Shown: positions 35,388 through 55,581, counted from the stretch's first letter. The stretch: 64,000 bases of DNA from an uncultured Ectothiorhodospiraceae bacterium (GCA_937867305.1 CALMKJ010000156.1:12011-76010); one strand, 5' to 3'. Notes: generated by a model not told the origin, from the sequence alone. Numbers and translations are program-made.

Positions 35388-36019
35388 GGACCCGGTCCGA
35401 GACCGGTCGGGTGTTGGGCACCCCTGGTGGTTCGTTGTCGAACCCGGACTGGTTGGGTGCGTCCGCTCGAGGGGCGGCCCGGGTGGGCCAGGCCGGTGAG
35501 GTGCGGACCGCGGCTGTCTTGGACGAGTTCGCCCGTGGTGGGTCGGTCACGGTGCTGCACGACCTGATGACCCCGTCGAAGAAGTACAAGGCGAACATCG
35601 ACCACGTCGTCGTGTCCGGTTCGACCGTCTACCCGATCGACTCGAAGGTGTGGAAGCCGGGCCGGTACTGGACGTGGGGTGGCCGGACCCGTCGAGGGTG
35701 GGAGCGGTTCACGCCGGCGGAGAAGAAGACGATGGTGGTGATCACCCAGGCGTTGGAGGCGTACCTGGCTGCCCGGGGCGTGAACGCGGTGGTCGCCGAA
35801 CCGTTGCTGTTCGTGTGGCCGTCGTCGAAACATTCGTCGTTGCGGACTGGGTTGTTGACGGTGCCGGGTGCCCGGGTGGTGCCGGGCCCGAGAGTCCAGG
35901 GAACGGTCTCGAAGCTGTTCGGGAACCGTCTGCGGGGCGGCGGTCAGGCCGCTGACGAACGGGTCGTGGACGCGTTGGTCCCGTTGCTGAACCGTCCTGG
36001 GCCGTCCGTTTTCGGTTGA
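35384..36019 (+). CDS. NERD (nuclease-related domain) protein
   Basis: VLHDLMTPSKKYKANIDHVVVSGSTVYPIDSKVWKPGRYW matches the NERD core (DIDHvvi...GvfvIEtK); ATGA overlap with the upstream stop. Confidence 0.5.
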   Translation: MRTRSETGRVLGTPGGSLSNPDWLGASARGAARVGQAGEVRTAAVLDEFARGGSVTVLHDLMTPSKKYKANIDHVVVSGSTVYPIDSKVWKPGRYWTWGGRTRRGWERFTPAEKKTMVVITQALEAYLAARGVNAVVAEPLLFVWPSSKHSSLRTGLLTVPGARVVPGPRVQGTVSKLFGNRLRGGGQAADERVVDALVPLLNRPGPSVFG

Positions 36020-36035
36020 CCGGCACAGGGAAGGC

Positions 36036-39000: not shown

Positions 39001-39989
39001 AAGCGCGTTCGGCCGGCGTGACTCTGCTGCTGGCGACCCAGAAACTGACCGCCAAAATGTTGGAGGTGGTGCCGGGGTCGAGCGATCTGAAGCAGAACCT
39101 GGCCCACATTCTGCTCGGCAACGCCTCTTCATGGGACCGGCAGTCGGCGTTGACCAGGCCCGAGAATGCTCCGCCGCTGGTCGGCCACGTCCCGAAGGGC
39201 CGCGGCTTGTGGGAGTCGTTGACGTCCAACGCCGTCGTCATCCAGACGTGGTTCGCACCGCAGAACGTGATGGCTCACGAGCTGTCGTCGCGTGGGCGGG
39301 TGCTGGAGGAGTCGGAGAAGGTCGACCTGTCTCGTTTCACGGCGCCGGCTTTGGAGGTCGACGGGGAGGTCATCGGCCCGGCGAACCCGGTGTTCACGGG
39401 TCCGGCGGAGGTCGATGAGGTGATCGAGCTCGACGACCTCGAGTTCAGCTTGGACGACTTGGAGCTCGACCTCGACGACGTACCGCCTCCGGGCGAGGGC
39501 GAGTCACAGGGGCCTGATTCTCCGGTCGCTCCGGCACCTTCTCTGCCGACGGCCGAGTCGGCTGACCCGGATGTGGTGAGTGTCGGTTCGGAGGTCGTGT
39601 GGGACGAAGTAGACCCGTCGCCGTGGACCCCGGAGGTGTCCGACTACGGGTGGGACGAGGTGGACGCGTTCGAGGCGTTCTTGGCCGAGTTCGGTCATGT
39701 CGGCCAGGTGACGTGGATGGACCCGAGGTTGTTGACGCCGGGCCCGGACGGGTCGCTCCTGGTGGACACGGTCCAGGAGATCGCGGATGCGGCCGGTGTC
39801 GTGTTCACGGGTCCGGACCTCCCTGTTCCCACCCCACCGTCTCCCGCTCCGGCGGCGGCGAACCTGGTCGACTTCGACTTCGAGGAGCGTCCGTCGGTTC
39901 CCCCGCACACCTTGCCGGCAACACCGGGGGACGACTTTGACGCGCCTGCGCCGCCTCCGGTTCGCGACGAGGAGGACCCGTTCGCATGA
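36036..39989 (+). CDS. large membrane-bound FtsK/SpoIIIE-family ATPase (1317 aa)
   Basis: N-terminal TM helices (AFVVLLVVTGLVAGLAGVWFGVPGFVFTWFAWVVAAWAL); a single P-loop LLAGTTGSGKSVLAQ followed by VYVIDPIKG; Walker B VVMIDEFTSLMG; acidic repeat-rich C-terminal tail. Variant class-2 motif CGGCACAGGGAAGGC directly precedes the ATG. Confidence 0.6.
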   Translation: MSTARARPRSRSRSAAQQPQGTEAFVVLLVVTGLVAGLAGVWFGVPGFVFTWFAWVVAAWALTPPELTGTDMNRNPVPQGPREERAMRRFNFARSAKWGLVFPFHAFWPGWPVKAAWLAGLVAGLAAFLVPHRAVPGRPPFALNVVDGLFVLVLVTQAAAARRDSVVLGDRSPGVAVDGLRGLFADASAKLPREAAFGLVTAAGLFGGAVGWWYVAPLLGAPAPLGSFAGPLWGVVGLFTGLGAAAGPAWVSASLTHWRTVVAARREWAPCWTMLKHVNPPQLLDRRTVGPAIVDTFRADGSMGSQSYLRLGEKILQARGTSHRIAVHTVPARDPQGQPIPGSADPLGFLIVSWPNDVAPDLTDPSEDPAVLRLYVESVFAWLGEGWGAGPVLDEMTLLTTPDAAAAWMLTLFSAGSLQWDGLRREGIKGMSGYLGCQVLVDHRDPQANKPTGQAVYAGNLTHDPELSGESPVSADDLEYLHYEDEWNGRWAAALKRDSNPPTPYRSTRSTEKLPNGQEIHRMAFVTRQGVDPREFFNLEAKVAATLSGAPFLTITGWQLNNRAGERHAQAFTVFWSSAAVPGNPDRLPPAPPPGRPERGRRGRVAPPSTDAQRWVLGGIVNDAFKAARLARPEVHKVRCLTDPGSRGHIWALSIRLFDGVTLADVRGASQRLRQQMGSEWLRVESAADGVTIVAGVSPSRATVATKHDSDWLVSLDWEQAWLDSKVSGVGGFTPRLVEVGNLPANQQVQVLDFSLPSGLAVGDVKAATSKLETATGNAFVDVRMHPNGKPDMMRVLVCEVSPLPERVNFDFEAADAADGVVFATGVEGEPIVFDSSSSPHALLAGTTGSGKSVLAQCFLYGFLTAPGGADVYVIDPIKGAADFKFAEPYAKAFAVDTFQAAGVLKTVYAEVVRRKNENAKHGASSYRELPDPPLPIVVMIDEFTSLMGQSPVPKPSDDPEMERERALLIADNAARVEVGVLTGKLAREARSAGVTLLLATQKLTAKMLEVVPGSSDLKQNLAHILLGNASSWDRQSALTRPENAPPLVGHVPKGRGLWESLTSNAVVIQTWFAPQNVMAHELSSRGRVLEESEKVDLSRFTAPALEVDGEVIGPANPVFTGPAEVDEVIELDDLEFSLDDLELDLDDVPPPGEGESQGPDSPVAPAPSLPTAESADPDVVSVGSEVVWDEVDPSPWTPEVSDYGWDEVDAFEAFLAEFGHVGQVTWMDPRLLTPGPDGSLLVDTVQEIADAAGVVFTGPDLPVPTPPSPAPAAANLVDFDFEERPSVPPHTLPATPGDDFDAPAPPPVRDEEDPFA

Positions 39990-40540
39990 CGATTCCGAAC
40001 GACGACACCCCGGTGGTCGCTGACGTGTGTACGGGTGACGTGGTCGCCGAATGGTGGGGGTTGTACCGCGGTGACGTGCGGGCCCGCTTGGGTGACATGA
40101 CTCGCGACCACGGGTTGGCGGACGACTTGACCGTGGAGACGTTCGTGCGGCTGATCCGGCATCTGCGCTTGGGGCGTCCGACCCCGGACAACCCGAAGGC
40201 GTGGCTGCGGGTCACGTCCCGGCGGCTGCTGATCGACCATCTGCGCAGGTCGGCGGTGCGCGCTGAGGAGCCGCGGGCCGACATGCCGGTCATGGTGTCG
40301 TTCTCCGACTTCGACGCCGTGGCTCGTTCGGAGGAGGCGCGTGCGTGGCTCGATACACTCGACCCGAGACAGCGCACGATCATGGAGCTGCGCGACTTCC
40401 ACGACCTTTCGACCGCCGAAGTGGCCGGCATCTTGGGGATGACGGAGCAGGCGGTTCGGTCGGCCCGCCACAAGGCGGTGGTCCATCTGCGTGGGCGAGG
40501 TGCCCCGCACCGTGACGTTGCCGAGGAGGCGAGCGCGTGA
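39986..40540 (+). CDS. ECF-type sigma-70 family sigma factor
   Basis: Region 2 (DLTVETFVRLIRHLRLGRPTPDNPKAWLRVTSRRLLIDHLRR) and region 4 (LDPRQRTIMELRDFHDLSTAEVAGILGMTEQAVRSARHKA); ATGA overlap with the upstream gene. Confidence 0.6.
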   Translation: MTIPNDDTPVVADVCTGDVVAEWWGLYRGDVRARLGDMTRDHGLADDLTVETFVRLIRHLRLGRPTPDNPKAWLRVTSRRLLIDHLRRSAVRAEEPRADMPVMVSFSDFDAVARSEEARAWLDTLDPRQRTIMELRDFHDLSTAEVAGILGMTEQAVRSARHKAVVHLRGRGAPHRDVAEEASA

Positions 40541-42528: not shown

Positions 42529-42532
42529 AGGT

Positions 42533-43543
42533 ATGAGCGCATCTGTCAGTAGGGGAGCCGAGTCGGCTCGTGAAGCCGCCCGTCAGCGGAACGGCAAGTT
42601 CGGGGCCCAGCACCTCCCGGAAGGCGACGGCGTCGACTTGGTTGTCGGGTCCGACGAGTTCGCTGCGGTCGCGTCTACGGACCGGCGGGTACGTGACCTG
42701 TTGGGCGACGTGGACGACTACCTGTTGGGCACCGTCACCCGCCCCGAATGGGTGGACCGGTTGTCCGAGCGGCTGCCCGCGATCGGGGACGCGGTGGGTC
42801 ATGACCGGTCGTTCGACGAGGAGTTCCTGCGCCCGCTGGTGTTGGCCGCGGAGGCTGGCGACGTGGACGAGGCGCGCCGGATCGCACGCAAGCTCGTCGA
42901 CCTGGATGTGGCGGAGCAGGCGTACCTGGACCAGGACTGGCGTCCGCCTGGGGTGCTGGTCGAGCGCGAAGACCTCATGTACGGCAACGTGTTCACCGGC
43001 GAGCGGTACGACTCGCGGCGCCGGCTGTCGGAGACGGCGAAGCTGATGCGCGCCGACATCAAGGACGCTCAGGCTGCCGGGTACATCCCGCCCGAGTTCA
43101 CCTACCGGGTGGTGACCGACTCGGGTGGCGGCGCGGTCCGCATCGAGGTGGAAGGGATGCCGGACGAGGACGCGTTCTGGCGTGACTACCACTCGCCGTA
43201 CCGGAACGGCCGCGAGTTCGGCACCCGTCCGTCGTGGGCGCGGTACCGGTTGACCGACCGGTTGAGAGGCATCGGCCGGGCGTACGCACGGCAGCAGAAC
43301 AACAGCCAGGTCGACTACTTCAACAACTCCCACGACGTGGCCGTGACCATCCGGCAGGAGTCGGAGACGATGTACTGGCGGCACGTGAAGGAGAGGTCGA
43401 ACCTGGCCGCGGAGATCCGTCGAACCCCCGCCAGTGACCCGAACCGGACCGAGCTGTTGGCGCAAGCCGAGGCGTTGCACACCGAGCAGAAGAAGGAGCT
43501 CGCCGCGAAACAGGAAGCCGACCGGGCCTCCTGGGGTTGGTGA
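42533..43543 (+). CDS. hypothetical protein (336 aa) with N-terminal SAREAARxxNGKFG motif shared with the ArdC-like protein
   Basis: Internal ATG of track ORF 42284..43543, preceded by CCCCGCACACC. N-terminus MSASVSRGAESAREAARQRNGKFGAQH, compared with MSTIQISPGAASAREAARKPNGKFGEQ at 51333. Confidence 0.5.
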   Translation: MSASVSRGAESAREAARQRNGKFGAQHLPEGDGVDLVVGSDEFAAVASTDRRVRDLLGDVDDYLLGTVTRPEWVDRLSERLPAIGDAVGHDRSFDEEFLRPLVLAAEAGDVDEARRIARKLVDLDVAEQAYLDQDWRPPGVLVEREDLMYGNVFTGERYDSRRRLSETAKLMRADIKDAQAAGYIPPEFTYRVVTDSGGGAVRIEVEGMPDEDAFWRDYHSPYRNGREFGTRPSWARYRLTDRLRGIGRAYARQQNNSQVDYFNNSHDVAVTIRQESETMYWRHVKERSNLAAEIRRTPASDPNRTELLAQAEALHTEQKKELAAKQEADRASWGW

Positions 43544-43597
43544 CCCGGTCGGCTTGGTTATGGGGTTGGTCCCGAACGTCCCCGAGCCATAACTAAC

Positions 43598-44234
43598 TCA
43601 TCGGAGGAGTGGGTCGAGCCGGCCGGCGAGGGCTTTCGTCATGGACGACCTGACCCCGCCGGGGCCTTTCACTTCGTCGCGCCACCCGGTCCACGTCCAG
43701 GTACGGAACTCGTCGAACGTGTCGGCTCGTCCGGCGTTGACCTGCCGGTGGGCCGTCTCCCGGTTCCGGGTGTCGAGTTCGGCGGTGAGCCGTTCCCAGG
43801 CGACGGTCCGGTTCTGGTGCTGGGACCGTTCTTCGGTGGCGGTGACGACGATGCCGGTCGGCAGGTGGGTCAGCCGGACCGCGGAGTCGGTCTTGTTGCG
43901 GTGTTGCCCGCCGGCGCCGGACGCCCGGTACGTGTCGATTCGGACCTCTCGTTTGTCCAGGTGCACGGGGACCGGGGTGCGGTCGTCGTCGAAGAAGACG
44001 ACGGTGACCAGGGAGGAGTGGCGACGTCCGCGTTTCTCGGTGTCGGGTACCCGTTGGACACGGTGCGACCCGGCGAGCGCACGGTAGGCGGGGTCAAAGA
44101 CGGTGGAGGTGGAACGCGCCACCCTCGAACCGGGGCGTGGCCCGGGCGTGCTTGCCGATCGCGTCGGCCAGTTCTTGTGCGAACGCGGCAGCGTCCGCTC
44201 CACCCTCACCGGGGTGGATCTCCATGCGGGGCAT
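43598..44234 (-). CDS. peptide-chain release factor homologue (GGQ domain; lacks RF domain 1, PrfH/RF2-like) encoded in two frames joined at a CTT TGA C +1 frameshift site
   Basis: Frame A (44234 down to about 44094): [46 protein letters not shown], then stop. Frame B continues as [16 protein letters not shown]...RRHSSLVTV...[41 protein letters not shown]... to 43598. The junction heptamer CTTTGAC equals the prfB shift site. GAAGGGAGGG RBS and class-2 motif upstream. Confidence 0.5.
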
Positions 44235-44296
44235 GATGCCCTCCCTTCGTTGTCGTCTCCTGCCTGTGCCACCACCGTGTGACCGGGTGGCTGAGG

Positions 44297-44602
44297 TCAG
44301 CCTTCGCCGGGTTCCGCGACGAGTTTCATCGCGGCGTACAGGTCCAGCCAGGAGGCGAGATCCCCGTCCGTCTCGTCGGCGAGTCGCCGCCGGCATTCGT
44401 CGACTTCGGCGAGGAAGTGGTCTTCGGCGCGTCCGGCTGCGTAGCGCCACTGTTCGCCGTGGACCTGGTCGCCGGCGGCTTCGGCGCGTTCGGCTCGCGA
44501 CAGGAACCGCGCGGCCACCGACGCGTGCCGGGTCACCTCGGTCGCGAGCTTGTAGTTGTCGAGGTTCTTGGTCCTGTCGGTGATGGCTCGTTGTGTGCTC
44601 AT
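44297..44602 (-). CDS. hypothetical protein (101 aa)
   Basis: Internal ATG of track ORF 44297..44773, just after a class-1 motif. Confidence 0.45.
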   Translation of the reverse strand: MSTQRAITDRTKNLDNYKLATEVTRHASVAARFLSRAERAEAAGDQVHGEQWRYAAGRAEDHFLAEVDECRRRLADETDGDLASWLDLYAAMKLVAEPGEG

Positions 44603-44689
44603 GATGTTCCTGTGTGCGGGGAGACCCGGGCCGTGCACCCGTGGTCGGCTACGTTGAAGCGAGCACCCGTCAACGTGAAGGAGTTCCTT

Positions 44690-44929
44690 GTGGCTCAGGT
44701 CGAACATGTCGTCCTCGAATGCGACCTGTGCGGGGTTGAGGGTCCGCAGGACGGGCCGGGAGTGCATGAGCATTCACTCGCGTTCGATGGCCGGGCCGCC
44801 CGCATCGTCGACGCGTGCGAGGAGTGCTGGGTGCCGTACCGGGGCATGTTGGAACGGCTTTCCGACGCGGGGCGCAGCGCGAAACGGTCCGGCAGCAGAC
44901 GCAACCGGGTCGTGAGGGTGTCGTCGTGA
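44690..44929 (+). CDS. small zinc-ribbon protein (79 aa; CDLC...CEEC)
   Basis: GTG start with GAAGGAG RBS; internal to Arg-rich track ORF 44279..44929. Confidence 0.4.
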   Translation: MAQVEHVVLECDLCGVEGPQDGPGVHEHSLAFDGRAARIVDACEECWVPYRGMLERLSDAGRSAKRSGSRRNRVVRVSS

Positions 44930-45177
44930 GCTCCTCGACGTCGGACACGACAGCCGTTCGGAGCGACGGGTGGTCGAGCCCGTACACCCGGATGCGGTTC
45001 CTCGCGTTCGGCATCGGGTTTGGGGGTCTCGTCCTGGGCGGGATCCTGTTCACGCTCGGGGTGGTGAAGGTCGGTGCCTGGTCGTTGACGTTCAACGTGG
45101 GTCTGATGCTGCTGATGTTCGGGTACGCCGGGCTCCGGATCGCCTCGTTGGCCAAGGAGTCCCGCCGGCCAGTCTGA
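44926..45177 (+). CDS. small membrane protein (83 aa, 2 TM)
   Basis: GTGA overlap with the upstream stop; tail of track ORF 44815..45177. Confidence 0.4.
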   Translation: MSSSTSDTTAVRSDGWSSPYTRMRFLAFGIGFGGLVLGGILFTLGVVKVGAWSLTFNVGLMLLMFGYAGLRIASLAKESRRPV

Positions 45178-45783
45178 TCAAGTGCCGGCTTCGGTGTCGG
45201 CGATGAGCCGTGCCACCTCGTGCACGTTGACGGGGGTGAAGTCCCACACGTCCACGCCGACGTTCACTCCGCGCTGGCGAACCGTGTACAGGTTGTGTAC
45301 GTGGCCATGGATCAGCCATCGGCCTTCGTCGCGGACCCGGAACTGGTTGTACCGGGCGTTGTCCATGTGGTCGGCCGTGTACGGGAAGTGGCTGAGCAGG
45401 ACCCGCCGCGGCGTGGCGGACGCCTTGACGGCGGGCAGGGTCAAGGTGGCGACGTCGACGACCGCGGTGAACCCGGCGTCAAGGTAGGACCGTTGGTGGG
45501 CCCATCCGTTGGTTTCGGTGACGGACGCCCGGTCGTGGTTGCCGAGCACGAGGACGTGTTCGCCGTTCAGGGACGTGACCGTCTCTGCCATGCGCCCGTT
45601 GTCGCGGGGCCCGAACCAGAAGTCGCCGAGGTGGAACGTCAGGTCGCCGGGTCCGACGACCTTGTTGTGTCGCCGGACGATCTCGGCGGTGGCGTGCTCG
45701 GAGGTCTCGAACGGCCGGTCGCAGAGCCGGTTGATGTTGTGGTGACCGTGGTGTTCGTCGGCGGTCAGGAACACGTTCGGCAT
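45178..45783 (-). CDS. calcineurin-like metallophosphoesterase
   Basis: Motifs DEHHGHHN, GDFWFG..R, GNHD, HGHVH in canonical order; internal ATG of track ORF 45178..46053; TGATG overlap with the upstream gene. Confidence 0.6.
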   Translation of the reverse strand: MPNVFLTADEHHGHHNINRLCDRPFETSEHATAEIVRRHNKVVGPGDLTFHLGDFWFGPRDNGRMAETVTSLNGEHVLVLGNHDRASVTETNGWAHQRSYLDAGFTAVVDVATLTLPAVKASATPRRVLLSHFPYTADHMDNARYNQFRVRDEGRWLIHGHVHNLYTVRQRGVNVGVDVWDFTPVNVHEVARLIADTEAGT

Positions 45784-46277
45784 CACTGTCCTGCTTCGGT
45801 GTCGGGGTCGTCGACGTGGTCGAAGGTCGCGATCTGGATGGCGGCGAGGCGTGCACGTTGCGCGGGGTCGAGGTAGCCGCTGCCTTTCGCGACCATGACG
45901 GCTTCGCGGACGGCGAGCCAGTCGTCGTGCCGCATCACCACGATGTCGGCGGTCGCGATGTGGCTGATGTGACCTGCCGCGGGTACGGGCACGGTGTCGT
46001 CGCCGACCCGGATGGTGGACACTTCGGCGGTCGTCCCCGTTTCTTCGGCCCACACGTCCTTCGCGGATCGGGTGCCGAACCGGGTGGCGACTCGTTCGCT
46101 GTTCTGCATGACGCGACGACCGTCGGCGTATTCGACGTCGAACCAGCCGTCGTCGCTGGCCCGGTACCGGTCGAGCCGGATCTTGCCGACCCGCATCTCG
46201 TTGGTGATGACGAGGAGGTTGTCGACGATCGGGACACCGTCGGCGGTGAGTCCAAGGTCAGGGTTTGGCGTGTTCAT
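45783..46277 (-). CDS. hypothetical protein (164 aa)
   Basis: Internal ATG (MNTPNPDLGL...) of track ORF 45783..46439, 8 nt after a full class-1 motif. Confidence 0.5.
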   Translation of the reverse strand: MNTPNPDLGLTADGVPIVDNLLVITNEMRVGKIRLDRYRASDDGWFDVEYADGRRVMQNSERVATRFGTRSAKDVWAEETGTTAEVSTIRVGDDTVPVPAAGHISHIATADIVVMRHDDWLAVREAVMVAKGSGYLDPAQRARLAAIQIATFDHVDDPDTEAGQ

Positions 46278-46280
46278 GCC

Positions 46281-46312
46281 TTGTCTGTGTGCGGGGCCGG
46301 CCGGTTCGTGCA
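46281..46312 (-). promoter_or_regulatory. class-1 bipartite motif (sense: GGTGCACGAACCGGCCGGCCCCGCACACAG) 8 nt upstream of the 45783..46277 start; an identical 30-mer recurs at about 46551..46582
   Basis: Exact 30-nt duplicate within 300 bp; same architecture as at least 16 other copies in the window. Confidence 0.45.
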
Positions 46313-46333
46313 CCGGTTCGGCGGGCTGAACCG

Positions 46334-46410
46334 GGTTCGCTCCGTGACCGCGGCCGGACTTGAACCGGCGACCCTCCGTCCTCGGGACGGTGTGCACCAC
46401 CAACAGGCGA
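46334..46410 (-). tRNA. degenerate tRNA-like sequence (intact acceptor stem and T-arm, aberrant D and anticodon arms); probable pseudo-tRNA or tRNA-derived remnant
   Basis: Reverse complement reads GGCCGCG CA GGTCGCCTGTTGGTGGTGCACACCGTCCCGAGGACGGAGGGTC GCCGG TTCAAGT CCGGC CGCGGTC A. It has a 7-bp acceptor stem with one G-U pair and a canonical T-loop, but no canonical 7-nt anticodon loop. Coordinates are +/-2. Confidence 0.3.
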
Positions 46411-46942
46411 CCTGCGCGGCCACGGAGCGAGTTCCCCACGAGGGGTCGGCGTGGGTGCCGTCGAGCTGTGCGGACTCGGCGCGCGTACGTCGCGCCTCAT
46501 CCTTGCAGGCTCGCTCTGCAAGTTCTGGTTAGTCGGATCGCGGTGCGTTCACGTTCAACCTGTGTGCGGGGCCGGCCGGTTCGTGCACCGGTCCGGCACA
46601 CGCAGGCTTGTCACCCAAGCGCGACTGGCTCCGGCGGACGCCGTTCCCATCCGGGTCGCCGCGGCGCGTTGAGCCGCTTCCCTGCCTCGAGGAGGACCCC
46701 GCCCCACACACCCCATTCCTGCCGTTGGAGCCCGAGTTGCAGGCATACGAGCCGGGCGGGGCAGGCGACGCAGTACGACTTCGCGTTGGCAAGCTCGATG
46801 ACGTTGTCGGGGTCGAAGATGCGCGGGTCTGCCCCCACACACGCCCATTCGAGGGAACGGTCGTGTGGCGTCGGGTGTTGTGACGCGATCTGGTGCGCTT
46901 TCGTGGCCATGCTGACGTTCACCTCCTTCGGGTTTGCGGGTT

Positions 46943-47015
46943 GTACGCCATCGGGGACTCGAACCCCGAGCCCTCGGATTAAAAGTCCGCTGCTCTACCC
47001 ATTGAGCTAATGGCG
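46943..47015 (-). tRNA. tRNA-Lys: tRNA-Lys (anticodon UUU)
   Basis: Reverse complement reads GCGCCAT TA GCTC AATGGGTA GAGC A GCGGA CTTTTAA TCCGA GGGCT CGGGG TTCGAGT CCCCG ATGGCGT A. It has a canonical cloverleaf with U33, anticodon UUU, A37, a TPsiC loop and discriminator A. A class-1 motif lies 20 nt upstream of the 5' end, with a class-2 motif further upstream. Coordinates are +/-1. Confidence 0.75.
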
Positions 47016-47028
47016 CGTGTTGACACCT

Positions 47029-47066
47029 TGATGGTGTGCGGGGTGCCCCGTCGCGTGCACCCGAAC
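47029..47066 (-). promoter_or_regulatory. class-1 motif (GGTGCACG-N12-CCCCGCACACC) 20 nt upstream of the tRNA-Lys 5' end
   Basis: Shows that the motif also precedes non-coding genes, so it behaves as a promoter rather than a translation signal. Confidence 0.45.
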
Positions 47067-47457
47067 CAGACCTGTGCCACCACCGGGTGGCCACGTGGAA
47101 GAAGGGGCGTGGTGGCTGTTCCCGCAACCGGGTGCAGTCCCTTTCGAGGCCCGCTCCGGCACGGCCGCTAAGCCGTACCGGTCAGCCCACCACTGGCGCA
47201 CATCCTTCGCCTTGCCGAGTTGTTCGTCCTCGCTTCACCCGCCGGTGAAGTCTGGTCCGCTCGGTCGCGACGCCATCTGTGCGCCGCACCCCGGATCGGG
47301 TCCGGGTACTGGTTCCGGCTGCGTACCGGGCCTCCACCAGCAGGCGCTCCGACGAGTCGGACCGGGATGTTGAGTCCCGGCGTGCTTTCTCCCGCGCACG
47401 GCTACGGCCTCCGCCTAGTTCCCCGGTTGCGAACCGGTTCTGCATGAGGTGACGCAG

Positions 47458-47530
47458 TGGGGCTGGGGAGTCTTGAACTCCCGACCTCCTGCGCTTGCCG
47501 CAGGCGCTCTACCAACTGAGCTACAGCCTC
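47458..47530 (-). tRNA. tRNA-like sequence with noncanonical anticodon loop (GGCAAGC, G at position 33) and an A-C mismatch in the acceptor stem; possible pseudo-tRNA
   Basis: Reverse complement reads GAGGCTG TA GCTC AGTTGGTA GAGC G CCTGC GGCAAGC GCAGG AGGTC GGGAG TTCAAGA CTCCC CAGCCCC A. The D-arm and T-arm are canonical. A class-1 motif lies about 48 nt upstream. Confidence 0.35.
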
Positions 47531-47632
47531 TTCAACAGGTACTGCGTGCGGCGGCTCGGGGACCACCTTTGCTGCCGTACAACCTACCTGTGTGCGGGAA
47601 CTCCCGGTTCGTGCACCGTTACGCTGCCGGTC

Positions 47633-47902
47633 ATGGCGTTGATGCCCAACGAGCTGAGGACCTTGGACCGGCACGCGCGCGGCGTCGGTCGGCGCATCGG
47701 GCACTCGATGCGTGTCTTCGTGCCGTCGAACGAGGAGTACCTGGCGTTGACGGTGCTGCACGACGGCGTCGAATGGTCGTTGGTGGGCCCGTCCCGGGTG
47801 GACAACGACTTGGTAGCCCACGACATCGACGCGACGTTGTGGTTGCTGTCGGTTGGGGCGTGCCGGATCGAGTCGACTGACGATGGGCCCCGGATCGCCT
47901 GA
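47633..47902 (+). CDS. hypothetical protein (89 aa)
   Basis: Internal ATG of track ORF 47495..47902; normal composition (VFVPSNEEYLALTVLHDGVEWSLVG); no recognisable RBS or motif. Confidence 0.3.
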   Translation: MALMPNELRTLDRHARGVGRRIGHSMRVFVPSNEEYLALTVLHDGVEWSLVGPSRVDNDLVAHDIDATLWLLSVGACRIESTDDGPRIA

Positions 47903-47935
47903 GCGTCACCCGCCTTCCCCGCACACCTCGGGGGC

Positions 47936-48871
47936 ATGAGCTTCAATCACGCGAACACGGTGTGGCAGTCACCGGACGGCACCTGGAACCGGGGCTTCCA
48001 CCCGGTCGACTACTACGAGTGCGGCATGTCGGACGACTGCGACGACGAGACCCATGAGTGGTGCGCGGTGTTCGACGACGACTCGTTCGAGTGGGTCTCG
48101 GGCGGGCACCGGACCGTCGACGAGGCGTACGCCTCGTGGGACGGCGCCAACCCGGGCAGCGCGGAGCAACGGGCCCCGTACGCGAAGCAGGACGAGGCGG
48201 GTCGTCGTGACATCGAGCGGTTGGAGGACATGGCCGCGAGGCTGTGCGAGAGGAACCCTCAGTGGTCGTATCGGGGTCCGCGGAGGCAGCGGACGTTGGC
48301 TGCGGTCGCGGCCCAGCGCAACGAGGTCGAGAGCGCCCAGTTCGGGTACCGGTTGGGCGGCTACGCCAACGACGTGACCGAGGAGTTGAAGGCCCTGAAC
48401 GATCGTGTTGTTGAGCGGTTGACGAGTGCCACCGACGATGAGAAGCGCGCCTACTTGGATCTGCAACGCGACCGCCGGGACGGTCTGCAGAAGATGTTGG
48501 ACGAGCATCTGGACCGGCGCCGGAAGCAGATCGTCCGGGACCGTCGGTACACCTTCTCGTCGTACCCCAGCCCGGAGTCGGCGGGCCGGCTGGCCGCTGT
48601 GTCGAAGGCTGAGGACGACGTAGCGAAGCGCATCGCGGCGATCGACCGAACACGGGCGCGGCAGCGTCAGGAGTTCTTCGAGCAGCCGACACCCAAGCCG
48701 GCTACCGCACCGGCCAAGAAGACGGCCGTCAAGAAGGCACCAGCGACGACACCGGCGCCGGCGAACCGGGGGAAGACGACCGCGGCGTCGACACCAGGGT
48801 CGTTCGCACCGAAAGCACTGGGCGAGGGCGACGTGGTGCTCATCGACGACCTGTGGGACGCCCCGAACTGA
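47936..48871 (+). CDS. hypothetical protein (311 aa) with Lys/Ala/Pro-rich tail ending RGKTTAASTPGSFAPK...
   Basis: Track ORF; class-1 motif CCCCGCACACC 9 nt upstream; C-terminal tail shared with the next gene. Confidence 0.5.
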   Translation: MSFNHANTVWQSPDGTWNRGFHPVDYYECGMSDDCDDETHEWCAVFDDDSFEWVSGGHRTVDEAYASWDGANPGSAEQRAPYAKQDEAGRRDIERLEDMAARLCERNPQWSYRGPRRQRTLAAVAAQRNEVESAQFGYRLGGYANDVTEELKALNDRVVERLTSATDDEKRAYLDLQRDRRDGLQKMLDEHLDRRRKQIVRDRRYTFSSYPSPESAGRLAAVSKAEDDVAKRIAAIDRTRARQRQEFFEQPTPKPATAPAKKTAVKKAPATTPAPANRGKTTAASTPGSFAPKALGEGDVVLIDDLWDAPN

Positions 48872-48889
48872 CAACGAAGGGACACAGAC

Positions 48890-49741
48890 ATGAGCAACTA
48901 CGAGTGGGAGCGCGGCACTTTCAAGCTGCCGTCGGCGGAGTTCGCCGGGTTCCGGCAGGCGGTTCAGGAATACGACCGGGCACGCAAAGAGAAGGTGTTC
49001 GCGTTGACCCAGCGGTTCTGGAAAGGACTGACCCGTAGAGAGCAGACGGATGTGGCGGCGTACCGGGATGCGCTGAGCAGATACGTGTACGGCCACTACT
49101 CCAACGGGTCCGCGTCCTCGGTTCCTGACCCGTTGACCGAAGACGTGTACGCCAAACTGCTCGTGTTCGACACGAAGCCCCGACGGGTGCTCGCCTCCGA
49201 CATGGACTACCCGACGAACCGGTCGACCGTGTTCCGTGACGGTGAAGCGACGGTGTCGTTCGACAAGGACGCGAAGACGGTCACCTGGGACGTTGATGAG
49301 AACAACCATGCCGTGGACTCGGCTCACGAAACCGAGTTGTGGCGGGTGTTCAGCGACCGCATGGGTAAGGTGCGGTGGACTCACGGCACCGGCGGGTCGA
49401 TGGCGTACCACTCGGAGTACGACGACGACTACGAGGTGGGTGGTGGCGCCAACACGTGCTCTGGTGCGTACGGCTACCTGGGGATCGCGGAGAACCCGCA
49501 TCATGTACGCCCGTTCGTCAACGCGAAAGGCCAGAACATCGGGGTGGACGTGAAGTTCTCCCGCTACGGCACTGTGGTCGGCAAGCCTGTCGTGATGGAC
49601 CGGTTCGGGCGGCCGATCCGGAAGCCGGCGTCTCGTCCGGCCGGTGGTGGCGCCCCGGGTCGAGGCAAAACGACCGCGAAGTCGACGCCCGGGTCGTTCG
49701 CCCCGACACAGCGAGGCGAAGGCTCCGACGTCCGCCTCTGA
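48890..49741 (+). CDS. hypothetical protein (283 aa) with C-terminal RGKTTAKSTPGSFAPTQRGEG tail
   Basis: Track ORF; tail paralogous to the 47936..48871 tail. Confidence 0.5.
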   Translation: MSNYEWERGTFKLPSAEFAGFRQAVQEYDRARKEKVFALTQRFWKGLTRREQTDVAAYRDALSRYVYGHYSNGSASSVPDPLTEDVYAKLLVFDTKPRRVLASDMDYPTNRSTVFRDGEATVSFDKDAKTVTWDVDENNHAVDSAHETELWRVFSDRMGKVRWTHGTGGSMAYHSEYDDDYEVGGGANTCSGAYGYLGIAENPHHVRPFVNAKGQNIGVDVKFSRYGTVVGKPVVMDRFGRPIRKPASRPAGGGAPGRGKTTAKSTPGSFAPTQRGEGSDVRL

Positions 49742-49770
49742 CCGGGGTGACGAGGAGAAGGAGCGTGGCC

Positions 49771-50334
49771 ATGAGTGTGCGGCGAGGGGATCTCGGGCAA
49801 CCAGGCAACAAGGGCTGGTTCGCCTCGTACGCCGCACCCGAACCGACCGGTGTCGACCTGGTCGACGACTCCTCCCTGTTCGCTGACCCGGAGTCGTTGA
49901 CCCCGGACGAGGCGTTCGACATGGTCTGCGACCCGGACCTGATCGACCGGTACACGCTCGGCGACTGTGCGGTCCTGGCTGACGCGGTCGCACGCCGCAA
50001 CGGATGGGGCGTCGTGGTCGTGGGCCGGCTCGAGGAGAGCGAATGGGGCGGTGACGTCGAGTACGAGGTCGAGACGCTGATCCACGCCTGGGCACGGCGC
50101 CCTGACGGTGCCCTCGTCGACATTCGGGGCGTGCACCCGCCGGATGTCGCGGAACGCCGTGCCGCCGACTGGGGTGTGGATGTGCACACGTACACCACGG
50201 CAGACGACCACGCCGCCCAATGGGACCCCGACCAGTGGGTCGACGACGACGAGGACACGGAGGTGGCTCGACTGGTCGCCGGGCTCGTGTCCCGGTTCGG
50301 GGCCGTGTACGAGGCCGGGCACGTCGAAGAATGA
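49771..50334 (+). CDS. hypothetical protein (187 aa)
   Basis: Internal ATG of track ORF 49375..50334 with a strong GAGGAGAAGGAG RBS. Confidence 0.5.
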   Translation: MSVRRGDLGQPGNKGWFASYAAPEPTGVDLVDDSSLFADPESLTPDEAFDMVCDPDLIDRYTLGDCAVLADAVARRNGWGVVVVGRLEESEWGGDVEYEVETLIHAWARRPDGALVDIRGVHPPDVAERRAADWGVDVHTYTTADDHAAQWDPDQWVDDDEDTEVARLVAGLVSRFGAVYEAGHVEE

Positions 50335-50369
50335 CCCGGTGTTCCCGGTGTGGTGGCACAGGAACAGAC

Positions 50370-51293
50370 ATGAAGCGTTTCCTGCCTGCCCTCCTGGCCG
50401 TCTACGCCCTCACCTTGACCGGGTGCGGGGACGACGAGCCGGGGACGACGACCGTGACGTTGCCGTCTGTGACCGTGGCGCCGACCGTCGAGCCGAGCCT
50501 GCTGGACTTGGACGGCTCCGCGTCTGCGTCGCCGACCGACCCGGCCGAGACGGAGACTGAAGCTTCCGGGTCGACCGACCTGGACGCCCAGGTGCTCGTG
50601 GACGCACTCGTTGACACCCGCACCGACACCGACGGCGACCGGGTGTGGCTGGGTGCCCGGCACGGGGAGAAGGCCGCCCGTGCACTCGGGGTCTCGTTGA
50701 GCCCCGGCAACAGCGCCCTGCTGGTGGCTGACGTGGACGGGCTGCGCTTCGTGTGCGTGGAGGCCGGCGAGCAGGCCGGGTACACGTTCGTGACCGCGAC
50801 CGAGGACGCGGAGGCGTTCCGCACCGGCGAAGGCGGTTGCCCCGAGGCTGACATCGAGGCGGTTCGTTCACTGGCCGACTTGTCGTCGAGGGTCGCCGAG
50901 GCGAAGACGGACGCGAAGGAAGCCCGGCAGGCGCAGAAGGCGGCCGAAGCCCGGCAGACCCGCAAGGCGGAGCGCCGAAAGGTGGTCGAAGAGCTGGAAG
51001 CCGCGGAGGCGTTGGAGGTCGCGGTGTCCTCGGACGCCCGTATGGTCGGCGCCCTGTTGGCGTTGGACCTGCGCGACGCGAACCAGGTGCCGACTGTGGG
51101 GTCCAACCTGGCCGGCCGGGTCACCAACATGCTCTCCATGTACGGGCTCAGCCTGGCCGGCGACAACAGCCTCGGGTACGCGAAGGCGGTGCGCGCCGGT
51201 TTCGCTGTGTGTGTGGAAGCCGGGGACGAGGGGCCGTCGGCGAGCTTCACCACTGGGAACAGCCGGCTGGTGGCCAGCGAAGCGGCCTGCTGA
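50370..51293 (+). CDS. lipoprotein (lipobox LTLTGC), Ala/Lys/Glu-rich C-terminal region
   Basis: MKRFLPALLAVYALTLTGCGDDEP signal peptide plus lipobox; ATG 6 nt after class-2 motif GTGGTGGCACAGG. Confidence 0.55.
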   Translation: MKRFLPALLAVYALTLTGCGDDEPGTTTVTLPSVTVAPTVEPSLLDLDGSASASPTDPAETETEASGSTDLDAQVLVDALVDTRTDTDGDRVWLGARHGEKAARALGVSLSPGNSALLVADVDGLRFVCVEAGEQAGYTFVTATEDAEAFRTGEGGCPEADIEAVRSLADLSSRVAEAKTDAKEARQAQKAAEARQTRKAERRKVVEELEAAEALEVAVSSDARMVGALLALDLRDANQVPTVGSNLAGRVTNMLSMYGLSLAGDNSLGYAKAVRAGFAVCVEAGDEGPSASFTTGNSRLVASEAAC

Positions 51294-51332
51294 CCCGGAG
51301 CGGGCGGCGCATCTCCCGCACACCGCACCGGC

Positions 51333-52391
51333 ATGAGCACCATACAGATCAGTCCGGGCGCGGCGTCGGCCCGTGAAGCGGCCCGGAAGCCGAACGGCAA
51401 GTTCGGTGAGCAGGAGCACGACGAGTCCGGGGTCCCGTTGGACGTGCCGGGTCGGGCGTTCAGCCCGTCCGAGACGTTCACCCGCCGGTACGAGTCGGTG
51501 GACGAGAAGGTCGCGGCGTTCAAGGTCGAGATCGACCGTGCGGTGGAGTCGCTCGCCGATGACGAGAACTGGCTCGACTACCTGGACATGGCGTCGAAGT
51601 TCTACCGCTACTCCCCCACGAACCAGTTGTTGATCGCGATCCAGACCGGTGGTCGGGCAACCCAGGTCGCGGGGTTCCGGAAGTGGAAGGACGAGTTCGG
51701 CCGCACGGTCAAGAAAGGTGAGAAGGCGATCGGCATCTTGGCGCCGCGGGTCGTCAACGTGACCGAGAAGGACGCCGGTGGGGCACCGGTGAAAGGACCG
51801 GACGGCAAACCGGTGAAGCGCCGGCAGGTGGTCGGGTTCACGACGGCGTCGGTGTTCGACGTGTCCCAGACCGAAGGCGACCCGTTGCCGGAGCTCGAAC
51901 GCGAGCTGTCCGACGACCCGCCTGAAGGGTTCCTCGACGACTTGGAGGCTGCCGCGAAGGCAGCCGGGTACACGGTCGAGTACCGCGAGATGAACTCGCA
52001 CTCGAACCGTACCGCGCAGGGCTGGACGGACCCGAAGAGCAAGGTCATCGTGGTTGACTCCGCGCTGAGCCGCGGCTCCGTCGCGGCGACCCTCGCGCAC
52101 GAGATCGGGCACGTGTACGCCGGGCATTGCGACCCTGAGAACGACGGGAAGTACCACGTCGGCGAAGGCGGGTGCCGGGGCCGGTTCGAGGTGGAAGCCG
52201 ACTCGGTCGCGTACGTGGTCCAGCGCGCCAACGGGGTGTACCCGGGCCAGGCGACGAAGCTGACAGCCCAGTACGTGGCCGGGTGGTCGCGGCACGACAA
52301 GGACGCGTTGCGTGAGTCCGCCGACGCGGTCTCGAAAGCGTCGAAGGCGATCCTGTCCGCAGTCCCGTTCCGGTCCGTTCAGGACGCCTGA
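51333..52391 (+). CDS. ardC: ArdC-like antirestriction protein (N-terminal ssDNA-binding ArdC domain plus C-terminal HExxH zincin-like metallopeptidase)
   Basis: FYRYSPTNQLLIAIQTGGRATQVAGFRKWKDEFGRTVKKGEKAIGILAP matches the ArdC N-domain pattern; TLAHEIGHVYAGHCD is an HExxH motif; class-1 motif CCCGCACACC 9 nt upstream. Confidence 0.6.
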   Translation: MSTIQISPGAASAREAARKPNGKFGEQEHDESGVPLDVPGRAFSPSETFTRRYESVDEKVAAFKVEIDRAVESLADDENWLDYLDMASKFYRYSPTNQLLIAIQTGGRATQVAGFRKWKDEFGRTVKKGEKAIGILAPRVVNVTEKDAGGAPVKGPDGKPVKRRQVVGFTTASVFDVSQTEGDPLPELERELSDDPPEGFLDDLEAAAKAAGYTVEYREMNSHSNRTAQGWTDPKSKVIVVDSALSRGSVAATLAHEIGHVYAGHCDPENDGKYHVGEGGCRGRFEVEADSVAYVVQRANGVYPGQATKLTAQYVAGWSRHDKDALRESADAVSKASKAILSAVPFRSVQDA

Positions 52392-53654: not shown

Positions 53655-53681
53655 CGCTCCGGCGTTGGCGCATGGTGTCGG

Positions 53682-55571
53682 GTGTCCACTGACCGACCTT
53701 CGAGAGGCTGCGCGTTGTCCAGCATCGAACGCATCCGCATCAACCTTCCGGACGGCTTCGACCCGGCCCGCCACCAACGGGCGTTGGAGGCGCTGATCGC
53801 GAAGAAGCACGGCGACGGTTTCGAGGTCGAGTCGATCGACCCGAAGACCAGGACCGCGATCGCGTCACGACAGGTGACGATCACGGAGGTGACCCAGGCT
53901 GAGCAGTCCGACTCGTTCGAGGTGCGTCTGGCCCGCGGCACGAAGCCCACGGACGGGGACCGGGTGGAGGCGAAGCTGATGGACTCCTACCCCGGCTACT
54001 TCATGACCCGGTTCGAGCCGTTCCTCGGCAAAGCCACGCTGACCCGGTTGACCGACGACGAGGCACGGTGCCGGGGTGCTGCGGCGGTCGCGTTGGGGGT
54101 GAAACCGTGGGACGTGCAGGTGCGGTCCCGCGTCGACGGTGGCTACGACCTGGACTTGCCGAAGTCCTACGCACCGTCGAAGAGCGAGAAGCTCGACGAG
54201 GTGGCGACCGTGGTGGTGGGCCGGCCCGGTTGGTACACCCGGATCGACGCACAGAAGCTGACCGCATCCTTGATCCCGGCGGACCCGCCGACGTTCCCGG
54301 CCATCATCCCGTTCCCGGTGAACCGGCTCGGCAAGGGCGACGTGATGAGCACCCCGTTCGGGTTCCGTCTCGCCGCTCCTGGTGAGGCGGACGGCCAACC
54401 GATCACGATCGACTGGCGTGCGTCCGGGTCGCTGCTCGTCAGTGGCCTCGCGAACGGAGGGAAATCGGTGACCATCACCGCGATCCTGGCGGACCGGGTG
54501 TCGAACGGGGCCGCACTGGCGATTGTGGACACGGCCGACAAAGCGGTCGACTTCAAGCCGTTCAAAGACTTGTGCGCGGTCGAGTCGGTCAACGGCAAGG
54601 TCATCCCGACGTGGGGGTGCGACTCGTTGGGCGCGTCGGTCGCCGTGTTGGCGATGCTGTGCGAGGAAGGGCAGGCCCGCGCGAAAGTGTTGGCCCGGCT
54701 CGGGGTGAACAACTGGCTGGACCTGCCGGACGGGCAGAAGTTCCGGCCCATCTTCATCGTCGCTGACGAGTACGAGGCTCTGGTGTCTCGGGTGCCGGAG
54801 CCGAAGGCGTTGCCGAAAGACCACCCGATCCGGGTGGAGGCGATCCGGGAGAACATGGCGCACGACCTGATCGCGCACTACATGAACCGGATCGTCAAAG
54901 AGTTCCGGTTCGTCGGGTTGAACCCGCTGATCTCGACTCAGGTGTCGAACGCGAGCACCGGGTTGCCGCCGTCGCTGAAAGGCAAGATGGGGCACTTCGT
55001 GTTGTGCGGCTCAGCCCCTTCGGACCCGGCCCGCCGGCAGGCGTTCCCTGACGAACGGTCGGTGCCGAGGGTGCCGGAGCATGTGGCGTCGGCGGGCCCG
55101 GTGGCCCGGGGTACCGGGTCGGCGAAGATCGAAGGTGGCGGCGCGTACGTGTTCAAGTCGTACTTCGCGCAGATCAACGACTACCAGGCGGCGTTGCACG
55201 GGCTGGGGGTGCAGCGGTTCACCGAACGTCAGGTGACGCCAACCCAGTCGCAGATCGACACGTACCTGCCGACGTTAGACGAAGACGACGGCGACAGCTC
55301 GCCGTCGGGTCGTGCGCGTGGCGGGGAACGTGCCCCGTCCGGTCGGTCCGCCGCTGAGGTGGCCGCGGAGATGGGCGACGAAGTGGGCGTGGCGATGCAC
55401 GACGGGTCGTACGGGTCCGGGTTCGAGAAAGCGAACGCGATGCGGAACCTGGCCGCCGGTGGCGGGGTGACCCGCAAGCAGAAAGCCGAGGCCGCGGAGG
55501 AGGCCGAGTACGCGGCCCGGTCCGGTGCCGTGACGGTGACGCATCGGGAACCGGACGCCGACGGCTGGTGA
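53682..55571 (+). CDS. FtsK/HerA-superfamily ATPase (629 aa) with atypical P-loop LANGGKS
   Basis: Walker A-like LLVSGLANGGKSVTITAIL; Walker B IFIVADEYEALV; acidic Gly-rich tail; class-3 motif just upstream. Confidence 0.5.
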   Translation: MSTDRPSRGCALSSIERIRINLPDGFDPARHQRALEALIAKKHGDGFEVESIDPKTRTAIASRQVTITEVTQAEQSDSFEVRLARGTKPTDGDRVEAKLMDSYPGYFMTRFEPFLGKATLTRLTDDEARCRGAAAVALGVKPWDVQVRSRVDGGYDLDLPKSYAPSKSEKLDEVATVVVGRPGWYTRIDAQKLTASLIPADPPTFPAIIPFPVNRLGKGDVMSTPFGFRLAAPGEADGQPITIDWRASGSLLVSGLANGGKSVTITAILADRVSNGAALAIVDTADKAVDFKPFKDLCAVESVNGKVIPTWGCDSLGASVAVLAMLCEEGQARAKVLARLGVNNWLDLPDGQKFRPIFIVADEYEALVSRVPEPKALPKDHPIRVEAIRENMAHDLIAHYMNRIVKEFRFVGLNPLISTQVSNASTGLPPSLKGKMGHFVLCGSAPSDPARRQAFPDERSVPRVPEHVASAGPVARGTGSAKIEGGGAYVFKSYFAQINDYQAALHGLGVQRFTERQVTPTQSQIDTYLPTLDEDDGDSSPSGRARGGERAPSGRSAAEVAAEMGDEVGVAMHDGSYGSGFEKANAMRNLAAGGGVTRKQKAEAAEEAEYAARSGAVTVTHREPDADGW

Positions 55572-55581
55572 GTCCAAGGCG

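Follow-up and report, generated by a model that had tools for sequence, protein, structure and literature searches.

The window analyzed here, a 64-kb stretch (GC 68%) of contig CALMKJ010000156.1, contains two genes whose products start with a similar leader peptide. The gene at 42533..43543 (+) codes for a hypothetical protein of 336 amino acids (aa) (P0001), which opens with MSASVSRGAESAREAARQRNGKFGAQH from the ATG at 42533, and the gene at 51333..52391 (+) codes for a 352-aa ArdC-like protein (P0003), which opens with MSTIQISPGAASAREAARKPNGKFGEQ from the ATG at 51333; both start positions are consistent with the database proteins. An earlier note on this DNA had described the leader as common to two otherwise unrelated proteins, and this is confirmed by the comparison of the whole proteins with BLASTP, which finds one significant segment, being the leader region (residues 5-52 of P0001 and 6-52 of P0003, 24/48 identical, E=6e-7), and no further significant similarity outside residues 5-52. 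A DNA motif, referred to as the class-1 motif (CCGCACAC), is found exactly 9 nt before both ATGs, as had also been noted.

The description of the second protein as ArdC-like is correct as well. In P0003, the tag (51348-51455) is followed by the ArdcN single-stranded DNA (ssDNA)-binding domain and a C-terminal HExxH metallopeptidase domain, and both domains score above the Pfam cut-offs (PF08401, PF06114, and PF20573): ArdcN with 29.1 bits (cut-off 22.6) for residues 83-175, and the metallopeptidase with 25.0 bits for Peptidase_M78 (cut-off 22) and 32.0 bits for DUF6782 (cut-off 27). His256, Glu257, and His260 are invariant across an alignment of 86 sequences. There are 482 homologues of P0003, many of which are labeled ArdC by their sources; among those with a named organism, the ArdC of Nocardioides pakistanensis comes closest (64% identity). 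P0001 has no Pfam or PHROG match, and its sole homologue among 5.8 billion proteins is P0002 (49% identical).

In the AlphaFold2 (AF2) model of P0003, calculated with 86 homologues, the mean predicted local distance difference test (pLDDT) score is 87.9, with values above 90 for the body of the protein, and residues 1-55 are coil with pLDDT values of 44-71. The model of P0001 is poor (pLDDT 64, with residues 1-43 below 50), and with this poor model as the query no Foldseek match in the PDB is found at E<=0.001. In P0001, the tag (residues 5-40; 42545-42652) is connected to the body by a variable linker, which extends to about residue 75. The tag (ASAREAARHGDGQFGTQ...DIDL) and the body are kept in the alignment of P0001 and P0002, whereas residues ~40-75 have diverged, and therefore the tag is a separate module.

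The leader had been noted as a 25-aa sequence. It is indeed a conserved leader, but it is longer, being bipartite and running through E..GV.L to about residue 38. This tag of ~30 residues consists of a basic stretch with a conserved arginine, followed by G-x-F/W/Y, about six residues, an acidic residue, one to three residues, and V/I-x-L, and it is coil with low pLDDT values in both AF2 models. When the nucleotide sequences of the 14-codon SAREAAR..NGKFG core are compared between the genes at 42533 and 51333, there are four synonymous and two non-synonymous differences, corresponding to proportions of synonymous (pS) and non-synonymous (pN) differences of 0.36 and 0.06, respectively. Because of this difference, the pair of leaders must be old, and a trivial duplication with identical sequence is ruled out. 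A similar comparison of 17 tags of the Micrococcaceae megaplasmid pACHL01, which are 75% identical at the DNA level, gives a pS of 0.51 and a pN of 0.15. In both sets pN is far below pS, which shows that selection acts on the peptide; these values point to long-term purifying selection on the tag peptide and not to recent gene conversion.

Tag copies in the window

Both proteins carry the leader, but it is not confined to them. A looser scan, combined with a profile, finds the tag seven times in the window, at five N-termini and at two C-termini, and the family extends far beyond this element. The third N-terminal copy, MSILDANGRLHGGDGRFAEQHRDESGVPL (21908-22006), belongs to a 227-aa hypothetical protein (P0243; 21323..22006, -), which is the best-scoring open reading frame (ORF) of the window under a model built only from foreign ArdC N-termini (18.8 bits, E=4e-5) and which is also recovered in an exhaustive database search. 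A weaker copy, ..KQPRHCDGRFSSFASPEGDAKL (28549-28656), is present at the N-terminus of a 160-aa hypothetical protein (28549..29031, +), ranking 4 out of 827 ORFs, but with an E-value of 0.1, which is borderline when taken alone. The other weaker N-terminal copy, MSVRRGDLGQPGNKGWFASYAAPEPTGVDL, opens a 187-aa hypothetical protein (49771..50334, +). This gene is preceded by a Shine-Dalgarno-like site and not by the class-1 motif, and its tag is of the RRGD..GN.G.F flavor, which also opens genes of the Curtobacterium plasmid pS16 (at 7203 and 10619 of L002).

The two C-terminal copies, which are also weaker, are found in adjacent genes for a 311-aa (47936..48871, +; tag at 48749-48868, ..RGKTTAASTPGSFAPKALGEGDVVL..) and a 283-aa hypothetical protein (48890..49741, +; tag at 49643-49738, ..RGKTTAKSTPGSFAPTQRGEGSDVRL, directly before the stop). 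The bodies of these two proteins are unrelated, and only 16 of 24 C-terminal residues are in common. The C-terminal tag of the former is 57% identical over 28 aa to the N-terminal tag of a gene in a related contig (L004, 18181). With the model built from foreign ArdC N-termini, the genes starting at 22006(-), 51333, 42533, and 28549 are the top four of the 827 window ORFs, and with the full profile the tags score 14-41 bits, whereas every other ORF across all loci scores at most 12 bits.

The tag is thus independent of position, as it occurs N-terminally, C-terminally, and internally. In one protein of 301 aa (P0125), a full tag is seen at both ends (residues 6-32 and 276-301); its C-terminal tag ends at the last residue and may be due to read-through into the next tagged gene or to a truncated contig.

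The class-1 motif (CCGCACAM-N9-ATG) occurs 16 times in the window, compared with 0.09 occurrences expected, and always ends at a likely start codon. Five of these sites directly precede tagged genes (42516-42535(+), 51316-51335(+), 22004-22023(-), 28532-28551(+), and 47919-47938(+)); other sites are found, for example, at 28151-28170(+), 29127-29146(+), 46275-46294(-), and 58772-58791(+). The motif is probably the -10 region of promoters of leaderless mRNAs, perhaps read by the extracytoplasmic function (ECF)-type sigma factor encoded at 39941-40540. When read in frame, it gives the signature '..PAHRxGM', and the same signature is found before tagged genes in pACHL01, in Curtobacterium, and in contigs of metagenome-assembled genomes; it has also caused gene callers to predict proteins with a false N-terminal extension (P0127 and P0130). 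One site resembling the motif also lies just upstream of a tRNA-Leu gene.

In view of these promoter-like sequences, which precede tags in pACHL01 and other contigs as well as the five tagged genes of the window, the tag could be regarded as part of a functionless cassette of promoter plus 5'-end copied by recombination, or as the result of a constraint at the nucleotide level for leaderless translation. This is very improbable. The synonymous sites are far more diverged than the non-synonymous sites, tags are also found after Shine-Dalgarno sites, at C-termini, and internally, 11 of the 16 genes behind a class-1 motif are untagged, and the tag is kept across ArdC proteins with identities from ~33% to 68%. 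The pN/pS values and the independence of position therefore largely refute this explanation. The recent module exchange by recombination, which had also been considered in the earlier note, is unsupported in the same way, because the synonymous divergence is high and the ArdC tag is ancestral in the actinobacterial clade (see below).

Several known types of signal were also compared with the tag and rejected. A Sec, Tat, or lipoprotein signal peptide does not fit, as there is no hydrophobic stretch, the linkers after the tag are acidic or rich in proline and alanine, and C-terminal tags exist. The leader of type IV prepilins reads G|F(T/S)L.E and has a hydrophobic helix after it, with glycine and phenylalanine being adjacent, whereas in the tag there is one residue between them and no such helix follows; an A24 peptidase is encoded by related elements. 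The conserved positions also do not fit motifs of the β-clamp-binding type or of the type of the tail of single-stranded DNA-binding protein.

Distribution and flavors of the tag family

A search of homologous elements for the same leader yields many further tagged proteins, in several flavors. The exhaustive HMMER search with a 35-position profile (1.84 billion representatives, E<=1e-3) finds 160 tagged representatives, a number that is a lower bound, as the motif is short; a word-indexed search using only the two leaders gave 22 candidates, none of which scored. Among the 150 listed proteins, the tag is within the first 45 residues in 139 of the 147 new ones, whose lengths range from 34 to 1848 aa. 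The bodies of 134 of the tagged proteins fall into 98 BLAST clusters, and almost none of these bodies has a Pfam or NCBIfam domain; in the window, the tagged proteins other than ArdC match nothing in PHROGs or Pfam. Pfam and NCBIfam contain no model for the tag itself, and the tag profile matches nothing among the PDB sequences. The motif was also not found in the literature, including term searches of the papers on polyvalent proteins and MuF toxins; the GGQF and HPR strings as literature queries gave only noise, and queries for ArdC together with a translocation signal, or for pACHL01, gave nothing. The tag appears to be undescribed; terminal cargo tags are already known as a principle.

Four flavors can be distinguished: flavor A (R-Q/R-P-K/A-G-x-P-x-G-G-Q-F-A-x5-E-x2-V-x-L), flavor B (F-x-E-x2-H-P-R-x3-5-G-x-F-x-x-K...L), flavor C (REAAR-x2-D/N-G-K/Q-F-G-x-Q..., the SAREAAR..NGKFG form of the two proteins described above), and flavor D (RRGD-x-G-x2-GN-x-G-x-F). 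Flavor C is rare, with no matches in IMG/VR and seven loci in 185,579 species genomes, where it again occurs in arrays of tagged genes. The tag has so far been found only in Actinomycetota. Of 120 listed ArdC homologues, about 60, which are actinobacterial and 33-68% identical, have an N-terminal tag of one or another flavor, and therefore the ArdC tag is ancestral in the actinobacterial clade; none of the Firmicute and proteobacterial ArdCs among the listed homologues has it.

Some actinobacterial ArdCs (P0035, P0047, P0051, P0058, P0060, P0068, P0070-P0076, P0082, P0084, and P0103) have, instead of the tag, a different conserved N-terminus that is rich in cysteines, MC[KRL]S..(E)PGGPRRCSG(D)..RA. 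This N-terminus might form a zinc ribbon and may be an alternative tag of other plasmid families.

Genes neighboring ArdC are also tagged: four in the Curtobacterium plasmid pS16, eight in the N. pakistanensis contig, and four in a 66-kb Logan contig, including genes for GmrSD_N and DUF6573 proteins. A Fic protein with a tag is encoded in the contig of P0002, and the other tagged protein types found elsewhere include Fic, GmrSD_N, and GNAT proteins and many proteins of unknown function.

The flavor of the tag tracks the element and not the protein family. The tags of pACHL01 all read RQPKGIPxGGQFA, those of the N. pakistanensis contig are all of type A, and those of the window and of L004 use [DN]GKFG, whereas homologous bodies can have different flavors, as seen for P0001 (flavor C) and P0200 (flavor A) and for ArdC, which is found with flavor A, B, or C. 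Such element-specific flavors form the pattern that would be expected from co-evolution of the tag with a partner encoded by the element.

Plasmid backbone and possible functions of the tag

Consensus tags match only 9 of 72,556 plasmids in tblastn searches, namely five Micrococcaceae megaplasmids (with tags at 17 to at least 40 places each, and at least 40 in pACHL01), three Curtobacterium plasmids, and one Glaciihabitans plasmid. In 50,697 phage records the same searches give no type A match and only weak partial type B matches (E>=0.3). The window encodes a 906-aa coupling-protein-like ATPase (30389..33109, +), which has weak matches to TrwB_AAD_bind, AAA_10, and FtsK and is 40% identical to a pACHL01 protein. 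This ATPase has 16 plasmid matches at E<1e-10, and the best nine of these (38-44% identical) are exactly the nine plasmids with the tag. Its homologues are annotated as type IV secretory system conjugative DNA transfer proteins. A distant relative of this coupling protein (28% identity) is found in the Bifidobacterium megaplasmid pMP7017, in which no tag is present within the 41.5-kb stretch examined. Hence, the tag, which is disordered in the models and present on unrelated bodies, co-occurs with one family of transfer ATPases.

The genes after the coupling-protein gene are also conserved. A 535-aa hypothetical protein (33064..34671, +) is 40% identical over 398 aa to the product of the pACHL01 gene directly downstream of the coupling protein, and it is followed by a NERD-domain protein (35309..36019, +), which is a conserved member of this backbone, by a 1332-aa FtsK/SpoIIIE-family ATPase (35991..39989, +; PF01580, E=7.7e-12; 41% identity over 1174 aa to pACHL01; also with weak FtsK, TraB, and EccC matches), and by the ECF-type sigma factor (39941..40540, +; Sigma70_r2 and r4), at whose position pACHL01 has a helix-turn-helix (HTH) protein. 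A second FtsK-like ATPase of 638 aa (53655..55571, +; weak match) is 45% identical over 541 aa to a pACHL01 protein with an FtsK/SpoIIIE domain. The gene order in pACHL01 (coupling protein, conserved hypothetical, NERD, large FtsK/SpoIIIE ATPase, HTH or sigma factor) is therefore that of the window; five backbone proteins are 40-45% identical between the two, and the large FtsK/SpoIIIE ATPase has a length of ~1330-1420 aa. In relatives, the backbone is found at 7941-19109 of L006 and at 25655-27388 of L007. It is conserved and apparently unstudied, and common to the Micrococcaceae and Curtobacterium megaplasmids. In pACHL01, arrays of tagged genes follow the backbone, with 10 in the next 20 kb and eight more in the adjoining stretch. 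The relatives, which are plasmids of 150-600 kb, have genes for the coupling protein, for FtsK, and for a complete type IV pilus. As 15 kb of the window gives no megablast match to phages and plasmids, the element of the window itself is without a close sequenced relative among these.

The earlier note had proposed a common targeting, export, or interaction tag, and this proposal is favored by the comparative data, namely the 98 different bodies, the occurrence at either terminus, the disorder, and the 9/9 co-occurrence with the coupling protein. The explanation that we prefer is that of a recognition tag for the co-transfer of proteins with DNA, bound by the element's own machinery, to which we assign a probability of about 0.4. 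A family of actinobacterial plasmids of conjugative type has the tag on a wide range of accessory or effector proteins that are unrelated to each other, and an element-encoded component would bind it. The best candidates for this component are the ATPase resembling coupling proteins, the conserved hypothetical protein encoded next to it, and an FtsK-like ATPase; the ATPases at 30389-33109 and 35991-39989 are the candidate translocases or receptors of the tagged proteins. The tagged proteins (ArdC-like, and elsewhere Fic, GmrSD_N, and GNAT proteins) would be recruited and handed over with the DNA or just ahead of it, and would act early in the recipient cell. Both the binding of the tag to the transfer machinery and the transfer into recipients are what we infer from the genes. 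A more far-reaching version, which is more doubtful, is an effector-delivery system in which a coupling-protein/FtsK-type machine would inject dozens of tagged proteins during mating (more than 40 per megaplasmid, and seven in the present element of 79 kb).

Several observations weigh against co-transfer. The relatives are classed as non-mobilizable by MOB-suite, no relaxase or oriT was identified, and the window matches VirB4 and coupling proteins weakly, and for these reasons conjugation itself is also what we infer. The co-occurrence with the coupling-protein family could reflect the shared descent of one plasmid lineage, and the element-specific flavors could stem from slow homogenization within each element. 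The known signals of type IV secretion systems (T4SS) are mostly C-terminal and positively charged, whereas the tag is mostly N-terminal and has an acidic second half. Finally, half of the motif is found inside phage head proteins (see below), so that an element-specific receptor is not the whole story.

The properties of the tag are also those of a short linear motif, as it is disordered, can be at either terminus, and is present on unrelated bodies. It could therefore be a docking site for one common partner that is intracellular and unrelated to transfer, such as a plasmid chaperone, a scaffold, a regulator, or a host hub, and that would bring the accessory proteins together or regulate them jointly within the plasmid-carrying cell. 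The element-specific flavors suit any partner encoded by the element. Nevertheless, this explanation is somewhat unlikely, as the tag is restricted to plasmids with one family of transfer ATPases and adjoins their genes, and as the role of a protein such as the tagged ArdC would be in the recipient. A motif binding to a general host hub should also occur in actinophages, and it is disfavored because the full tag is essentially absent from the 50,697 phage records.

The half-motif, which has the form (F-x-E-x-x)-H/Q-P-R-x(3-9)-G-x-F and corresponds to the first half of the tag only, is found inside large proteins. Five giant proteins encoded at low GC (P0124, P0141, P0156, P0228, and P0235) each have three to four internal copies of sFvEedEHPRDxDGKF between their domains, the domains including RelA_SpoT, tRNA_NucTransf2, and GNAT. 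In IMG/VR, the type A DNA pattern matched 56 stretches, which are mostly the internal half-motif in the form [YW][NS]PxQPRxPxGxPxGGQ[FW], followed by glycine-rich linkers. The proteins concerned are large and have portal, MuF-like minor-head, ParB, Nudix, or methylase matches, and the half-motif is also seen in head-associated proteins of L034 (four copies), L061, and L059. Arrays of full N-terminal tags occur in only one 52-kb contig of IMG/VR. For polyvalent head-associated proteins, entry into the target cell together with the DNA has been predicted, and for the ArdC of plasmid pSa, transfer in the course of conjugation has been reported (PMC5512222); both points speak for co-transfer.

The position of the half-motif exactly between the domains of the five giant proteins and of the L034 protein with four copies would also agree with a processing site, at which polyvalent proteins are cut between their domains, or with a degron, by which a protease of the host or the element limits the lifetime of early-acting proteins. 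The conserved arginine and aromatic residue of the tag would be compatible with such a role, one tag carrier has an N-terminus resembling the HK97 prohead protease, and four Clp_N-domain proteins adjoin the transfer genes of pACHL01. However, conservation of the Clp_N proteins does not extend to the window, where no prohead-type protease is found either, cutting an N-terminal tag removes only few residues from a single-domain protein, and a simple degron needs no conserved bipartite sequence of 30 residues with element-specific flavors. A degron or processing site is therefore unlikely. The four Clp_N proteins of pACHL01 are stand-alone proteins encoded directly upstream of its coupling-protein gene (2247-5671 of L006); they were also considered as a general receptor of the tag and rejected, as they are present in pACHL01 and not conserved in the window.

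The half-motif in portal, MuF-like, and other head-associated proteins, together with the 52-kb IMG/VR contig that has an array of full tags, could also be understood if the tag were a virion packaging signal, comparable to the capsid-targeting sequence (CTS) of T4 or the Dar system of P1, and the element were a phage-plasmid that co-injects ArdC and other proteins. The window has phage-like genes, coding for ThyX, a dNTP pyrophosphohydrolase, tRNAs, and an RF-1-domain protein, and genes for ribonucleotide reductase and PhoH are found in a relative and for WhiB in contig L001. Yet Pfam and PHROGs find no capsid, portal, terminase, or prohead-protease gene in the 64-kb window (~15 kb of the source contig lie outside it), and the sole match of structural type is weak and resembles a tail protein (E=1.5e-4). 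Cultured phages lack the full tag, and the relatives are the large plasmids with coupling-protein, FtsK, and pilus genes. Packaging into virions is thus quite improbable.

In the window, the regions 2300-4837(-) and 13417-15828(-) code for intein-split ThyX and a PD-(D/E)XK nuclease. The ThyX-like thymidylate synthase (PHROG thymidylate synthase, 3.5e-40) is split by an intein with HTH and HNH domains, and the 804-aa nuclease has PHROG matches to 'terminase large subunit' at residues 198-335, which may reflect an intein-type insertion and not a terminase. The protein encoded at 5380-6366(-) combines the N-terminal domain of a dATP/dGTP diphosphohydrolase (PF18909, 4.5e-24) with a part resembling nucleoside deoxyribosyltransferase, and represents phage-style nucleotide metabolism on a plasmid-like element. 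The genes for tRNA-Lys(UUU) and tRNA-Leu(CAA) (46943-47016(-) and 47457-47530(-)) serve codons that a host of 68% GC seldom uses. The RF-1-domain (GGQ) protein of 225 aa (43598-44275(-)) has only a stub of the PCRF domain, and an RF-1-domain gene is also found in contig L001. Directly upstream of the ArdC-like gene, between tagged genes, a lipoprotein with a lipobox (MKRFLPALLAVYALTLTGCGDD; 50367-51293(+)) is encoded, which has no family match. The genes downstream of ArdC, all on the (+) strand, are without tag and code for an S-adenosylmethionine-dependent methyltransferase (52391-53071), a kinase resembling aminoglycoside phosphotransferase (APH) (55540-56589), and a GNAT protein (56541-57059). 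These may have roles in establishment or anti-defense, acting from the DNA rather than as delivered proteins.

Relation to known systems

The tag joins a large set of previously unconnected hypothetical genes and assigns them to one family of little-studied actinobacterial plasmids of conjugative type; in the sample of 134 representatives, at least 98 of the bodies are unrelated. Provided that the tag serves for delivery, it would be the first signal with a defined sequence for conjugative protein translocation in Gram-positive or actinobacterial systems, and it would provide a simple sequence rule for listing plasmid effectors, with ArdC as the positive control. The tagged set would then be a catalog of establishment and anti-defense effectors, mostly of unknown fold, and the tag would be a portable handle for protein delivery in Actinomycetota. 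It would also link the tagged plasmid proteins to the polyvalent proteins of phages, and the half-motif would point to an ancient 'travel with the DNA' signal common to phages and plasmids. Even with another function, the tag is a useful handle for annotation.

The CTS of the internal proteins of T4 and the signals of P1 Dar act in capsid assembly and are removed by the prohead protease. As in these systems, a short N-terminal peptide is shared here by unrelated proteins, including antirestriction proteins, and in T4 and P1 it sends them with the DNA. In contrast, the present carriers are large plasmids with coupling-protein-like and FtsK-like ATPases, and the tag is bipartite, has ~30 residues, and can be C-terminal. 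The packaged antirestriction system of P1 Dar has been discussed previously (PMC5512222, PMC12810830).

The polyvalent proteins (Iyer, Burroughs, Anand, de Souza, Aravind 2017; PMC5512222) have the same effector domains, including ArdC-N with metallopeptidase, GNAT, RelA/SpoT-like, Fic, ParB, and methylase domains, and the same logic of early delivery. Here, however, each module is encoded by one gene with its own tag and is not joined to others in a giant polypeptide. In a term search, no mention of the tag motif is found in that paper.

Encapsulin cargo-loading peptides and the N-terminal signals of Photorhabdus virulence cassettes (PVC) and other extracellular contractile injection systems (eCIS) are short disordered terminal peptides, which mark diverse cargo for one machine. 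The tag is likewise a short disordered terminal peptide and is usable at either end, but no shell or contractile-injection genes are detected here, and the sequence motif is unrelated.

The signals known for T4SS and conjugation include the C-terminal signals of VirB/D4 systems, the translocation signal (TS) domains of relaxases, and the plasmid proteins moved by the pED208 T4SS (PMC8406263, PMC11288057). The similarity would be that the transfer machinery recognizes accessory proteins of a plasmid and delivers them into the recipient, as is proposed for the tag. The element encodes coupling-protein-like, VirB4-like, and FtsK-like ATPases, as would be needed for a conjugative T4SS signal, and the tag is unstructured like a VirB/D4-type tail, but it is N-terminal in 139 of 147 proteins and its second half is acidic. 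The T4SS signals are charged C-terminal tails or folded domains with little sequence conservation, whereas the present tag is a well-conserved linear sequence, usually at the N-terminus. Unlike the known T4SS signals, it is linked to a system of a divergent coupling protein and FtsK-type ATPases.

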